A DNA stretch of 64,000 nt from Asaia bogorensis (GTDB lineage Bacteria; Pseudomonadota; Alphaproteobacteria; CACIAM-22H2): positions 3,427 through 67,426 of the forward strand of contig CAMDDQ010000002.1 of assembly GCA_945892765.1 (NCBI GenBank), written 5' to 3'. Positions 59,537 to 63,478 of this stretch are shown in pieces. The translations under genes were made by a program, and so were the position numbers. The notes beneath the pieces were generated by a model that saw nothing but the letters and a program-made list of their open reading frames with translations, did not search any database and was not told where the DNA came from. The first letter of the stretch is position 1, and each line of letters begins with the position of its first letter.

Positions 59537-60373
59537 ATGACGAGCGGACGGGCTTTTCTCAAGATGCATGGGCTCGGCAACGATTTTGTCGTCGTTGACG
59601 CTCGCGGCGAGCCATTTGTTGCGGATGAACGCGTGGCGCGACACATCGCCGATCGCCATATCGGAATTGGCTGCGATCAGCTTATCGTCATCGAAAAACC
59701 TCGAAATGGGCAGGCCGACGCGTTCATGCGGATTCGCAACGCCGATGGCGGCGAGGTTGCCGCATGCGGCAACGCCACGCGCTGCGTTGCCCAGCTCTTG
59801 ATGGCCGAATCGGGTCGAGACCATGCCTACATCGAGACCGTGGCCGGACGGCTCGAGGCCGCGCGCGCCGATCGTGGACGGATCGCGGTGGATATGGGTC
59901 CGGCGCGAACCGACTGGCGCGACATTCCGCTGGCGCGCGCCATGGACACACAAAGGCTGCCAATTTCGCTCGGTCCCCTGAAAGACCCGGTCGCGGTGAG
60001 CATGGGGAACCCACATATGGTTTTCTTCGTGGACGACGCAGACGCGGTGGACCTCGCGACGCTGGGGCCGGTGTTGGAGACCAACGCGCTGTTTCCCGAA
60101 CGGGCCAATGTCGGCGTGGCCACCGTTCTAGCCCCCGACCGGGTTCGTCTGCGCGTGTGGGAACGAGGCGCCGGCCTCACGCGGGCCTGCGGCAGCGGCG
60201 CCTGCGCCGCGATTGTCGCCGCCCATCGGCGCGGTCTTTCGGAACGCCGCGCCGTGGTCGCCGTGGATGGCGGTGAACTGTCGATCGAGTGGTTGCCCAA
60301 CGGACACGTCACGATGATCGGACCGGCGGCCATCGCCTTCACCGGAATCATGGACGGGACGTTGCTGTCATGA
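59537..60373 (+). CDS. dapF: Diaminopimelate epimerase.
   Basis: 'FLKMHGLGNDFVVVD...IIEKPRNGQADAFMRIRNADGGEVAACGNATRC...ACGSGACAA'. Confidence 0.9.
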   Translation: MTSGRAFLKMHGLGNDFVVVDARGEPFVADERVARHIADRHIGIGCDQLIVIEKPRNGQADAFMRIRNADGGEVAACGNATRCVAQLLMAESGRDHAYIETVAGRLEAARADRGRIAVDMGPARTDWRDIPLARAMDTQRLPISLGPLKDPVAVSMGNPHMVFFVDDADAVDLATLGPVLETNALFPERANVGVATVLAPDRVRLRVWERGAGLTRACGSGACAAIVAAHRRGLSERRAVVAVDGGELSIEWLPNGHVTMIGPAAIAFTGIMDGTLLS

Positions 60374-61608
60374 GCGGTCCCGAGATCGTCACTTTCGGCT
60401 GTCGGCTCAACGCTTATGAATCAGAAGCCATACGCGCGGCGACCGCCGGGCGCGACGACCTCGTCATCGTCAATACCTGCGCCGTCACGGCGGAGGCCGA
60501 GCGGCAAGCACGGCAGGCGATTCGCCGCCTGCGGCGCGAACGACCGAACGCCTGTATCGTCGTCACCGGCTGCGCCGCCCAGATCAATCCAGGCGCCTTC
60601 GCAGCGATGCCCGAAGTCGACCGTGTCCTTGGCAATAGCGAGAAATTCCGACCGGAGCGCTATGCGGACACCGAGGCTCGCGTGACCGTCGGCGACATCA
60701 TGGCGGTTCGAGAGACGGCCGGGCATCTTGCCGCTGGTTTTCGTGAACGCGTCCGCGCCTTCGTTCAAGTGCAGAACGGCTGCGACCATCGATGCACCTT
60801 CTGCATCATTCCTTACGGACGTGGTCCCAGCCGCAGCGTGCCGACTTCGCGCATAGAAGAAGAACTGAAGGCGCTGGTCGCGGCCGGTTATCGCGAGATC
60901 GTTCTCACCGGCGTCGATCTTACCTCCTATGGCGGCGATCTGCCGGAGCGCCCGCAACTTGGCGGCATGATTCGCGGCTTGCTCGATGCGGTTCCGGGGC
61001 TGGCTCGTCTGCGGCTCTCCTCGGTCGATCCCGCCGAAGTAGATGACGATCTGTTTCGTCTGTTCGCCGAAGAAGGCCGGCTGATGCCCCATCTCCATCT
61101 CAGCCTTCAATCCGGCGACGATCTCATCCTCAAGCGCATGAAACGCCGGCACAGCCGCGCCGATGTCGTTCGGTTGTGCGAGCGCCTACGCGAGGTGCGT
61201 CCCGATATCGCCTTCGGCGCCGATCTCATCGCTGGCTTTCCGACCGAAACCGAGGAGATGGCGGCGGGGACGCGATCGTTGCTCGACGAATGCGGCATCG
61301 CCTTCCTGCATGTCTTTCCCTTTTCGCCGCGAGTGGGAACGCCGGCCGCGCGGATGCCGCAGCTTCCCGTGGCGCTGCGGCGCGAACGTGCCGCCCAATT
61401 GCGGGAGCAGGGCGTCGTGTTGAGACGGCGATTTCTCGCCGGCCTCGTTGGCGCAACCGCCGATGTGCTGGTCGAGGATGGGTCGTTCGGGCGCACCGAA
61501 CATTTTGCGCCGGTCCGCGTCGATCGCGAGTCGCACCTCGGCGCCTTGGTTAAGGCTCGCCTAGAGGCCGTCGAAGGCGAAGAGCTGCGCGCCCGCGTCT
61601 TGGCGTGA
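60370..61608 (+). CDS. mtaB: tRNA t6A37 methylthiotransferase (MiaB-like MtaB), radical SAM.
   Basis: 'IVTFGCRLNAYESE...VNTCAVT...VQNGCDHRCTFCIIP'. ATGA overlap with the dapF stop. Confidence 0.8.
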   Translation: MSGPEIVTFGCRLNAYESEAIRAATAGRDDLVIVNTCAVTAEAERQARQAIRRLRRERPNACIVVTGCAAQINPGAFAAMPEVDRVLGNSEKFRPERYADTEARVTVGDIMAVRETAGHLAAGFRERVRAFVQVQNGCDHRCTFCIIPYGRGPSRSVPTSRIEEELKALVAAGYREIVLTGVDLTSYGGDLPERPQLGGMIRGLLDAVPGLARLRLSSVDPAEVDDDLFRLFAEEGRLMPHLHLSLQSGDDLILKRMKRRHSRADVVRLCERLREVRPDIAFGADLIAGFPTETEEMAAGTRSLLDECGIAFLHVFPFSPRVGTPAARMPQLPVALRRERAAQLREQGVVLRRRFLAGLVGATADVLVEDGSFGRTEHFAPVRVDRESHLGALVKARLEAVEGEELRARVLA

Positions 61609-61615
61609 TCTCGGC

Positions 61616-62572
61616 ATGACCGAAACGACCGCCGAGGGCCGCGGCTGGTTGGGCCGGCTCAAAACCGGGTTGAGCCGCTCGTCCTCGCGTTTGGTCGAAG
61701 GCATCGCCTCCGCGCTCACCAGTGGCAAACTCGATGAGGCCACTCTCGAGCGGTTGGAGGAGTTGCTCGTCGGCGCCGATCTGGGTCCGCGCACGGCGGC
61801 GGCGCTGGTTGCCGCCTTGAAGGCGCGCAGGTTCGACCGCGGTGTTACGGCCGACGACGTTCGCGCCGCACTGGCCGGCGAAATCGCAACCCGTCTTGCG
61901 CCCGCGGCCCGTCCCCTTGTTCTCGACCCCGCGCGCCGGCCCTTCGTCGTGCTCGTCGTCGGCGCCAATGGCGGCGGCAAGACCACGACCGTCGGCAAAC
62001 TCGCCAGCCTGTTCGGCGCCGATGGCAAGCAAGTCGTCCTGGCAGCCGGCGACACTTTCCGCGCTGCCGCCGTCAGCCAGTTGCGGCTGTGGGGCGATCG
62101 TGTCGGCTGTCCGGTGATCGTTGGCCCCGAAGGCGGCGATCCCGCGTCCCTTGCTTATGACGCTCTCGAAGAAGCGCGTCGCCGTGACGCCGACCTCCTC
62201 CTCATCGACACCGCCGGGCGTCTTCACAACAAGGCCGGCCTCATGGCCGAATTGCAAAAGATCGTACGCGCTCTGCGCAAGGCCGACCCAACCGCGCCGC
62301 ATGAATGTCTGCTGATCCTCGACGCAACCATCGGCCAAAATGCCTTGGCTCAAGTCGAGACATTTCGCACCATGGTCGATGTCAGCGGACTCGTTTTGAC
62401 GAAGCTCGATGGCTCCGCGCGCGGCGGCATCTTGGTCGCGTTGGCCGAAAAATTTTCGCTTCCCGTGCGTGCCATCGGCGTCGGCGAAGGCGCGAAAGAT
62501 TTTCGGCAGTTCGATGCGGTGGAATTTGCAGGGGGGCTGTTGTCGGAACCGCTGCAACCGCAAGATGTATGA
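61616..62572 (+). CDS. ftsY: Signal recognition particle receptor FtsY (short form, NG domain only).
   Basis: 'VVGANGGGKTTTVGKLA...DTAGRLHNKAGLMAEL...VLTKLDGSARGG'. Confidence 0.9.
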   Translation: MTETTAEGRGWLGRLKTGLSRSSSRLVEGIASALTSGKLDEATLERLEELLVGADLGPRTAAALVAALKARRFDRGVTADDVRAALAGEIATRLAPAARPLVLDPARRPFVVLVVGANGGGKTTTVGKLASLFGADGKQVVLAAGDTFRAAAVSQLRLWGDRVGCPVIVGPEGGDPASLAYDALEEARRRDADLLLIDTAGRLHNKAGLMAELQKIVRALRKADPTAPHECLLILDATIGQNALAQVETFRTMVDVSGLVLTKLDGSARGGILVALAEKFSLPVRAIGVGEGAKDFRQFDAVEFAGGLLSEPLQPQDV

Positions 62573-62914
62573 CGATCTCTCCGCTATCGCTCAGTTTGTG
62601 CAGTTACCAGCGTTGTTGTGTGGAAGTGTCATACCACGGCGTGTGCTAACAAATTTCACGTACGCAACCATTGGGGGCATACGCAATATTTGGATGATTT
62701 GCAAACTCGACCCACAGGATATTGAATTTTCTTGACAGGGGGTTGAATTGCCATGATCTTCTGCCGCTTAGGACCGGTTGCGCGTTGTGTGCAGTGGTCG
62801 AGGGGTGGCCCGATCATCATGCGATGATCAAGTCCGCGAAAAAGCTCCGCGGTACCGACAGCCACCACCCTCGGCCGACCCGGTCCTTAGTGTGACCAAT
62901 AGGAGGTCAATGAC

Positions 62915-63004
62915 ATGCCAGTGAAGAAGGCTGCTGCAAAGAAACCGGCGAAGAAGACCGTGGCGAAGAAGCCCGCCGCAAAAAAGACTGCAAAAAAGAA
63001 GTAG
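62915..63004 (+). CDS. Candidate 29-aa Lys/Ala-rich polycationic micro-protein (histone-H1-tail-like).
   Basis: ATG at 62915 is preceded by a perfect AGGAGG (62901-62906) at 8 nt spacing. It encodes MPVKKAAAKKPAKKTVAKKPAAKKTAKKK. A 10-bp stem hairpin (63011-63047) follows. It is below the ORF-track length cut-off. Confidence 0.4.
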   Translation: MPVKKAAAKKPAKKTVAKKPAAKKTAKKK

Positions 63005-63010
63005 TTGGTT

Positions 63011-63047
63011 GGAGTCTTCATCGGCCTAGCGGCCGTTTGAAGACTCC
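63011..63047 (+). terminator. Stem-loop (GGAGTCTTCA...TGAAGACTCC) downstream of the micro-ORF. No T-tract follows.
   Basis: 10-bp perfect inverted repeat with a 17-nt loop that contains a ggcc/ggcc mini-palindrome. Confidence 0.35.
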
Positions 63048-63478
63048 ATCGCGTCCGGGCGCGGTTTGCCCCCGGCCTGCTTCAGTCGGCGGCCCTCTGG
63101 GTCGCCGACTTCCTTTTTTGGGCAACAACGTTTTAGCGTTGCCCGAGCCGTCCATCCCTCAGATTCAGACGAGAATGTTCAGCAGGCTCCCGCGCGGGAC
63201 CGTAGGCAGATGGGAAATCGCGACCGGTTTATTGGCCCCCGGTTGGGGCTGGGCGGCGACCGCTAGACGAGCATTGGTCGCCGTCAGCGGTTGCGTTCGC
63301 GCGGCAGCCGTCGTGGGTGGTTGCGGTTTGACCGGCGCCGGGCGCGGCGCCCCGCCATTGGCGGGGGCGACGTGTCGCGAAAGTGCTTCCAAGACGGAAA
63401 AGCTGGGTGGGATTTGCATCCGGGCGCTCGCGTGTCATTGCCGTCGCCCTGTTGTATGCGCCCGTGACTAACGATCGG

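Follow-up and report, generated by a model that had tools for sequence, protein, structure and literature searches.

A lysine-rich micro-gene with a conserved promoter, folded leader and terminator downstream of ftsY in a clade of uncultured Alphaproteobacteria

The window analysed here is a 64,000-nucleotide (nt) stretch of DNA from Asaia bogorensis (contig CAMDDQ010000002.1, positions 3,427 to 67,426). Downstream of its ftsY gene lies a small open reading frame (ORF) embedded in a self-contained unit (62661-63120) made of a TTGACA promoter box, a 5′ hairpin of ~125 nt, the ORF, a 3′ hairpin and an intrinsic terminator. The comparative evidence presented below makes it very probable that this unit is a real, translated and selected micro-gene. 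As to its role, the best reading, which we hold tentatively and with a little less than even confidence, is that of an independently transcribed, efficiently expressed gene for a nucleic-acid-binding polycation resembling a histone H1 tail. The original prediction, made on the window alone, had proposed an overlooked coding micro-ORF. This proposal was borne out by synteny after ftsY, by a reading frame kept in 11 further lineages and by the pattern of third-position substitutions. The features of the unit, all on the plus strand, are as follows.

62661-62718, plus strand: upstream conserved block, with TACGCAA twice, 19 bp apart, and a TTTGCAAA palindrome
62719-62749, plus strand: promoter box ATATTGAATTTTCTTGACAGGGGGTTGAATT, with three TTGAM repeats at 10-11 bp spacing
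62754-62759, plus strand: putative -10 hexamer GATCTT, 16 nt after the -35 (deduced from position)
62765-62892, plus strand: long leader hairpin, predicted 5′-terminal (from folding and conservation)
62765-62777 with 62880-62892, plus strand: closing stem P1 of the leader
62778-62794, plus strand: side hairpin of the leader
62795-62809 with 62861-62877, plus strand: stem P2 of the leader
62812-62829 and 62832-62855, plus strand: inner hairpins of the leader
62901-62906, plus strand: Shine-Dalgarno AGGAGG, followed after 8 nt by the ATG at 62915 (read in the sequence)
62915-63004, plus strand: micro-ORF encoding MPVKKAAAKKPAKKTVAKKPAAKKTAKKK plus stop, 29 residues of which 13 are Lys
62947-62975, plus strand: 15-nt (five-codon) tandem repeat within the micro-ORF, AKKTV / AKKPA
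63011-63047, plus strand: hairpin of the 3′ untranslated region (UTR), directly after the stop, with a 10-bp outer stem (from folding)
63084-63120, plus strand: intrinsic terminator, a 12-bp stem (63084-63110) followed by TCCTTTTTT (from a terminator scan)

The unit follows mtaB (60289..61608) and ftsY (61616..62572; TIGR00064 match, 300.9 bits), and no plausible gene was found in the 342 nt between ftsY and the micro-ORF. All the motifs listed in the original prediction, namely TTGACA, the TTGAATT repeat, the inverted repeat, AGGAGG-N8-ATG, the ORF and the 10-bp hairpin, were found in place. Its description of the surroundings had to be adjusted on three points. The gap after ftsY is indeed poorer in G+C than the window (53% vs 63%); its AT-rich part is confined to 62573-62764 (47%). 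What had been taken as a 340-bp structured leader is mostly promoter and upstream region, only the last ~150 nt (62765-62914) corresponding to a 5′ UTR. The downstream stem-loop at 63011-63047 stands, but the terminator beyond it, outside the range then considered, had been missed. The presumed whole transcript of ~350 nt is strongly folded (z = -7.75), and no tRNA or tmRNA was found in the region of the unit. Within the 64 kb, all six frames considered, the Lys-rich stretch is unique to the micro-ORF. Tandem Repeats Finder described the repeat inside it as 1.9 copies of period 15 with 92% matches. The residues K, A, P and T account for 25 of the 29 positions of the peptide.

In order to follow the constraint acting on each part, 6.4 kb were aligned with two close relatives at the species level, a Rhodospirillales metagenome-assembled genome (L001) and Baikal-deep-G46 (L002), whose FtsY proteins are 93-94% identical to that of the window. 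The identities to L001 / L002 were as follows.

Third codon positions of ftsY and mtaB: 80-82%
Spacer after ftsY, 62573-62660: 76%
Promoter region, 62661-62764: 93-95%
Leader, 62765-62914: 146/150 and 148/150 positions (neutral sites, ~76-82%)
ORF codon positions 1 and 2: 97-100%
ORF codon position 3: 83-90%
3′ UTR to terminator: 94-95%

Six distinct substitutions separate the ORF from those of L001 and L002. Five are synonymous third-position changes and the sixth replaces Val with Met; the probability that at least five of six would fall at third positions is about 0.02 (simple binomial, p = 1/3). The same tendency was observed with nine shorter ORFs from the more distant relatives described below. 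In their codon alignment, variable columns at positions 1, 2 and 3 were in the ratio 2 : 2 : 11, with a binomial estimate of p about 0.002. Nine codons specify Lys in every short-ORF lineage; five of these flip between AAA and AAG, and none has become AGG or GAG. Length differences between ORFs are all whole codons, the peptides having 14, 15, 16 or 29 residues, with a lysine content of 45-64% over these 14-29 codons. Pooling the family gave K112 A51 M12 T9 P6 V3 I2 G1, without any Arg, Asp, Glu or aromatic residue. Apart from Lys, the residues are limited to the small Ala, Thr, Pro, Gly and Val plus a C-terminal Ile, which points to selection on the peptide and not only on the Lys codons. The short form, KKK-A-KKK, has no Pro and a four-residue period. 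The 29-residue form may owe its greater length to repeat expansion, as suggested by the tandem repeat. Finally, the Shine-Dalgarno sequence, the 8-nt spacing, the ATG and the in-frame stop are kept in 12/12 distinct lineages, the sequence AGGAGG, AAGGAG or GAGGAG with its 8-nt spacer being present in 11 of 13 family members.

The same data bear on whether any gene exists here. Low-complexity ORFs can arise by chance, and one gene caller picked, on the opposite strand, a Phe-rich ORF of 44 residues (62887..63021, minus strand, in the window; L096 3594-3728, minus strand, in the assembly concerned). That the micro-ORF is a chance frame, or that this antisense ORF is the real gene, is however hardly credible. 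The coding signature is conserved across 12 distinct lineages, and the antisense ORF has neither a Shine-Dalgarno sequence nor a promoter. Its product (MKTPTNYFFFAVFFAAGFF..., membrane-like, the reverse complement of the Lys-codon run) was discarded as an artefact, the frame being broken in L001 by a 1-nt deletion and replaced in the short-ORF clade by a Leu-rich translation in a different frame. Gene callers did call the 29-residue gene in four assemblies of the ENA. Separately, the Joint Genome Institute (JGI) annotation runs the micro-ORF upstream through the leader (L100 3570-3752, L097 3628-3750, L105 1237-1356 and two further JGI contigs). The resulting 'proteins' of 39-85 residues are in-frame artefacts that could seed misleading protein clusters; the Shine-Dalgarno sequence and the conserved ATG mark the true start of 14-16 residues.

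In a second alternative, it is chiefly the RNA that acts, as a regulatory or dual-function small RNA (sRNA), with translation secondary or serving to tune RNA stability. The Lys-codon tract, of the (A-R-N)n type, would then occupy the distal face of Hfq and the U-tail its proximal face, and the leader would offer the regulatory surface. A short, discrete and strongly folded transcript with a U-tailed terminator fits this idea, as do a leader more conserved than the third positions of the ORF, AAG/AAA repeats that match A-R-N, and third-position variation that A-R-N tolerates. The (A-R-N)n tract and U-tailed Rho-independent terminators are indeed both present, but lysine coding explains both as well. 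The constant translation signals in 12/12 lineages argue against the RNA as the main effector, and so do the whole-codon indels, the restriction of spacer codons to small residues and the absence of any Lys codon turned to AGG, which A-R-N permits, or to GAG. The unit matches no Rfam family, and the sequence of the leader is not conserved between clades, leaving no conserved seed. Taken together, this renders an RNA effector distinctly unlikely.

The distribution of the unit was established from FtsY homologues. Of 28 other alphaproteobacterial ftsY loci, a Lys-rich micro-ORF followed ftsY in L015 only and was absent from 27. L015, whose FtsY is 60% identical to that of the window, shares the promoter box and likewise has a leader that folds, the sequence AAGGAG-N8-ATG and a terminator. 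A metagenome scan with the promoter box returned six hits, the only real ones being L085 and L086, both close to L015; in a viral collection the same scan gave only chance hits in coding regions. By tracing FtsY homologues to their contigs we obtained further lineages with 65-85% FtsY identity to L015 (L097, L099, L100, L102, L103, L105, L106 and L107), each with the order dapF-mtaB-ftsY-unit. In total, 11 distinct lineages besides that of the window have the unit immediately behind dapF-mtaB-ftsY. The peptides are listed below.

L015: MAAKKKTKKKAAKKKK
L097: MAAKKKAKKKAKKK
L099 and L105: MAAKKKAKKKAAKKKK
L100: MAAKKKAKKKTAKKKK
L102: MAAKKKAKKKTKKK
L103: MAAKKKAKKKTAKKKK (L104 is the same sequence in another assembly)
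L106: MAAKKKGKKKAKKKI
L107: MAAKKKAKKKAKKKI

No FtsY homologue was found between 94% and 69% identity to that of the window, and the 29-residue form is therefore known from one genus-level group only. No other Lys-rich micro-ORF was found in the 108 sequences examined. In a neighbour-joining tree of 38 FtsY proteins the carriers, all uncultured Alphaproteobacteria, form one clade with the window group as its deepest branch, and all sampled members of this clade have the unit; Reyranella, Stellaceae, Tistlia, Kiloniellaceae, Rhizomicrobium and Micropepsaceae fall outside this clade and have no unit after ftsY. A single origin followed by vertical retention at one locus would be the simplest history. 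What lies downstream of the unit varies as follows.

Window clade: convergent, minus-strand GSDH-type gene
L097, L100, L106 and two contigs known from gene tables only: pfkB-eamA
L015: co-oriented gene for a 318-residue protein at the pfkB position
L102: eamA
L103: SMR gene
L107: convergent, minus-strand NUDIX gene

Since these genes differ, the unit is kept independently of any downstream gene.

Conservation upstream of the transcript is sharply bounded, with 93-95% identity to L001/L002 over 62661-62764 and 76% in the adjoining spacer. Within the promoter box, the middle TTGAM repeat is a perfect -35 hexamer, TTGACA (62732-62737), flanked by TTGAATT at 62722-62728 and 62743-62749. A single copy of the 19-mer ATATTGAAWTYTCTTGACA is present in the window (0.01 expected); it is also found in L001, L002 and L015 and is identical in L106. 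Likewise, the box ATATTGAATTTTCTTGACA has no second copy in the window (0.01 expected), is identical in L106 and nearly so elsewhere, and TTGACA-N5-TTG is retained in most lineages. Sixteen bases past the -35, most members have GAT-N2-T/C, which we infer to be a degenerate -10, and transcription would start near 62766. A simple rule (end of the -35, plus 16, plus 6, plus 7) was applied to all 13 sequences, and in 13/13 the predicted 5′ end fell 0-4 nt ahead of the first paired base of the leader. The upstream block is only partly alignable with the short-ORF clade and may be a binding site for a transcription factor. At a similar distance, the short-ORF clade has a CTTGTCAAG palindrome.

The leader is tightly constrained within the genus. 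Its few changes in L001 and L002 are transitions from G-C to G-U that preserve pairing, and the 150 nt before the ATG have a minimum free energy (MFE) of -72.4 kcal/mol (z = -6.4 vs dinucleotide shuffles). A long hairpin of ~115-125 nt is the MFE fold in most of the 13 leaders, with each clade represented. The top fold differs in L099, L105 and L106; L105 gives the long hairpin with slightly shifted coordinates, and in L106 the corresponding closing stem was found by eye only. The common plan consists of a P1 of ~10 bp, an asymmetric internal loop, P2, which starts with a G-rich run (GGGAGG, GGGGGUG or GAGGGGUGG), and a variable tip. The hairpin ends 10-25 nt upstream of an unpaired Shine-Dalgarno sequence. 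The side hairpin and the two inner hairpins, the first of which is the GATCATC-atgc-GATGATC inverted repeat (62812-62829), are additions of the window clade. On the minus strand, a terminator-like site (62868..62849) mirrors the hairpin 62832-62855 with its A-rich loop; it was not seen in other clades.

Covariation supports this architecture. Already in a sequence-only MAFFT alignment of the nine short-clade leaders, eight pairs show compensatory changes on both sides. When all leaders were aligned with MAFFT, the 3′ strands of L102 and L103 were put in the wrong place, so that covariation was counted on a seven-member subgroup (GUAGGGAGG) only. There, 92.9% of cells pair in P1 and P2 vs 21-49% with slid partners, five pairs are changed on both sides, and the covariation score was matched by none of 500 shuffles. 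A covariance model built from these leaders (R1) recovered its own members at E values of 1e-16 to 1e-26 but did not find those of the window, L102 and L103. For this reason a riboswitch-like conserved core, resembling a ligand pocket, was dropped from consideration; only the G-rich stretch and the helix architecture recur. No Rfam 15 covariance model matched in the whole window, where only sub-threshold, terminator-driven matches were obtained (E 0.15-4), nor in the units of seven related loci. As judged from these alignments, what the leader conserves is its architecture together with a strong, lineage-specific sequence constraint. We read the hairpin as a 5′-terminal stabiliser, which would also carry a lineage-specific surface for binding a protein or a peptide.

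A binding surface in the leader would also suit a peptide whose partner is RNA or the ribosome, either a tiny ribosome-associated protein or an RNA chaperone, with the hairpin as its autoregulatory site. Autoregulatory leaders of this kind occur in ribosomal-protein operons, and arginine-rich peptides pair with hairpins in a comparable manner. Conservation of 97-99% including the loops exceeds what a stabiliser needs, and the leader differs between the 29-residue and the 14-16-residue clades as co-evolution of peptide and RNA predicts. The size and charge of the peptide are within the range of the smallest ribosomal proteins, and the signals for its expression are like those of strongly expressed genes. 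On the other side, the peptide matched no ribosomal-protein model of NCBIfam or Pfam, and it contains no Arg at all while small ribosomal proteins mix Arg and Lys. Moreover, the locus lies outside ribosomal-protein operons, the family is confined to one clade, and the clades share no sequence core in the leader, as R1 showed. An RNA or ribosomal partner is possible though unlikely.

At the other end of the transcript, the 3′ hairpin of the window lies wholly after the stop codon, and its changes in L001/L002 are G-U-compatible or in the loop. Most short-ORF relatives form a helix between the final Lys codons and a pyrimidine tract just beyond the stop, of 15 bp in L015 and similar in L097, L099 and L102. 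The stop codon therefore lies in or beside a hairpin that translation must open. Equivalent terminators were found by the scan in L100 and L107 and are visible in all other members. Near the end of the ORF of the window there are also two in-frame A AAA AAG heptamers (GCA AAA AAG; 62980-62986 and 62992-62998). A AAA AAG is the classic dnaX-type -1 slippery sequence. A -1 slip at these sites would bypass the TAG stop of the micro-ORF; the second heptamer is lost in L001/L002 (GCT AAG AAG), and the arrangement is probably incidental.

The pairing across the stop codon, by which translation would remodel the RNA, is one of the points in favour of a lysine-sensing leader peptide. Ribosome speed over 9-13 Lys codons would report the supply of lysyl-tRNA, with an output either through terminator read-through into downstream genes (pfkB-eamA) or through the fate of the transcript itself. 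Fourteen to 16 codons with 9-10 for one amino acid make up the classic attenuator layout, a terminator follows the ORF, lysine is used and arginine never, and the lysine-pathway gene dapF belongs to the same cluster. But dapF is upstream, not downstream, and pfkB, eamA and SMR genes do not belong to lysine biosynthesis. What follows the unit changes between lineages; the window clade and L107 have either no gene there or one on the other strand, and the unit is still retained. Folding gave no antiterminator pairing with the 5′ arm of the terminator, though no dedicated search for alternative structures was run, and the restriction of non-Lys codons to small residues would be needless for a pure codon sensor. 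With variable downstream genes and no antiterminator seen in the folds, attenuation was rejected, and lysine sensing in general appears very improbable.

We return to the H1-tail-like polycation. The consensus -35 with its AT-rich upstream flank, the stem-loop at the predicted 5′ end, the unpaired strong ribosome binding site and the tight terminator would yield a stable and efficiently translated small mRNA. The peptide would accordingly be abundant, a diffusible and intrinsically disordered polycation comparable to a free-standing histone-H1/Hc2 tail or to a protamine. It would bind polyanions, the likeliest target being chromosomal DNA, through nucleoid compaction or shielding; RNA, ribosomes and polyphosphate would be less likely ones. 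The leader probably adds a regulatory site, possibly for feedback by the peptide itself, because its conservation exceeds the needs of a stabiliser alone. The composition in K, A, P and T, the pentapeptide repeat, a weak similarity to HC2 and the expression signals all fit a polycation of the H1-tail or protamine type. The likeness to an H1/AlgP-type tail put forward in the original prediction thus holds for composition and repeat but not at the level of a family assignment, and the nucleoid- or ribosome-binding function suggested there is plausible. The peptide has no hydrophobic segment. A small toxin of a type I toxin-antitoxin system was considered and rejected on this ground, the hydrophobic antisense ORF being unconserved.

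Several observations weigh against this interpretation. The match to Pfam HC2 (PF07382) scored 15.1 bits (E = 0.026), below the 40-bit cut-off. A phmmer search with the 33-residue stop-to-stop translation against 1.84 billion representatives gave no hit, and the peptide matched no NCBIfam family at E <= 1 and no PDB chain at E < 9. Fourteen residues is very small for a stoichiometric nucleoid protein. Flips between AAA and AAG at third positions would also be tolerable for a purely RNA-level (A-R-N)n tract, and selection holds the leader more tightly than the ORF, so that a function centred on the RNA has some room. A strict sigma-70 scan called no promoter at the unit of the window, nor in the scans of L100 and L107, and because of this the 5′-terminal position of the hairpin is one that we infer.

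In addition, the unit can be imagined as a self-contained RNA-peptide device, which we judge improbable, in one of two versions. It could possibly be a stand-alone sensor of lysine supply, where ribosome transit over the 9-13 Lys codons would remodel the stop-codon hairpin and this remodelling might set the stability or the activity of a regulatory RNA. Alternatively, it could possibly be an autoregulatory pair, where the polylysine peptide would bind its own, rapidly co-evolving 5′ hairpin and might, through it, be a dosage-controlled RNA chaperone or condensate former. To our knowledge, neither version has a described bacterial precedent as a monocistronic unit without a regulated downstream gene.

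Three features of the surrounding genes are reported for completeness. dapF, which encodes diaminopimelate epimerase of the lysine pathway, heads the dapF-mtaB-ftsY cluster in the window (about 58.5-62.6 kb) and in all carriers; the cluster also occurs in genomes without the micro-gene, and the lysine link may be a coincidence. A gene for an extracytoplasmic function (ECF) sigma factor with a PhyR_sigma2-type region, followed by a gene for a protein of 256-277 residues, is present a few kb past the unit in two distantly related carriers (L090 6246-6758 and L107 5020-5532, both plus strand), a synteny that may be coincidental. In related loci the ffh gene is divergent and upstream of dapF, and in L015 a match to the Rfam 'ffh sRNA' (RF01793; 714-765, minus strand; 48.8 bits, above the gathering score) is unrelated to the micro-gene.

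At 14-29 codons, a gene is too small for the cut-offs of annotation pipelines and protein databases. Exact look-up showed that both variants of the peptide are absent from a collection of 15 billion proteins, and the peptide is beyond the reach of profile searches. No paper with MAAKKK, AKKKAKKK or KKKAKKKA came up in text searches, and keyword searches of the literature found only analogues (ScvA, Hc2, AlgP, DdbA). Genes for tiny basic peptides are familiar as a class; this particular family, the arrangement of its promoter, leader, ORF and terminator, and its constant location behind ftsY seem not to have been described before. The micro-gene has remained in place while its carriers diverged deeply, their two main groups being down to ~60% identical in FtsY, with a promoter that is almost invariant and a leader constrained about as much as second codon positions of essential genes. 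Such retention and constraint imply a function important to an entire clade of uncultured Alphaproteobacteria from fresh water and soil. Should the peptide prove to be a free H1-like tail, it would be among the smallest known nucleoid or nucleic-acid-binding proteins and would offer a clean system in which to study how cells dose simple polycations. The combination of promoter box, 5′ hairpin, AGGAG-N8-ATGGCNGCNAARAAR and terminator provides a recipe to search for similar micro-genes.

With leader peptides of the hisL/pheL/thrL type the unit shares an ORF of 14-30 codons dominated by one amino acid and followed by a terminator; it differs from them by the lack of a conserved downstream operon, by a long hairpin that stands upstream of the ORF rather than across its end, and by its constrained spacer residues. 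As in ompA-type 5′ stem-loops, a stem-loop stands within a few nt of the (predicted) 5′ end, and as in dual-function sRNAs of the SgrS/SgrT and RNAIII/hld type, a short, discrete, terminator-ended transcript carries a tiny ORF (reviewed in PMC12612679). In contrast to both, the hairpin here is ~115-125 nt long, branched in the window clade and under near-absolute constraint within the genus. The small ribosomal proteins bTHX, bS22 and eL41 have 25-35 residues, mostly basic, and strong ribosome binding sites. They mix Arg and Lys, are spread widely within their phyla and match family models, whereas the peptide of the window has no Arg, matches no model and belongs to one clade.

ScvA of Coxiella burnetii is rich in Arg and Gln, not Lys, and we know of no comparable conserved leader or ftsY synteny for it. 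Its producer is a gammaproteobacterium, an obligate intracellular pathogen that goes through a developmental cycle, and the likeness to the present peptide is one of description. ScvA occurs in the small-cell variant, where a part in chromatin condensation has been ascribed to it (PMC13568565, citing Heinzen et al. 1996). Like the present peptide it is free-standing, very small (about 30 residues) and highly basic, with a gene of its own. Lysine-rich pentamers make up Hc2 (PMC2848022), AlgP is an H1-like protein linked to the spacing of polyphosphate granules (PMC9239181), and DdbA has an H1-like DNA-binding domain (PMC3643593). Chlamydia Hc2, Pseudomonas AlgP and the tails of actinobacterial HupB/DdbA have the same K/A/P/T composition and short tandem repeats as the peptide of the window. 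However, these proteins have well over 100 residues and the repeat is usually fused to a folded domain, whereas here the repeat stands alone, in 14-29 residues.

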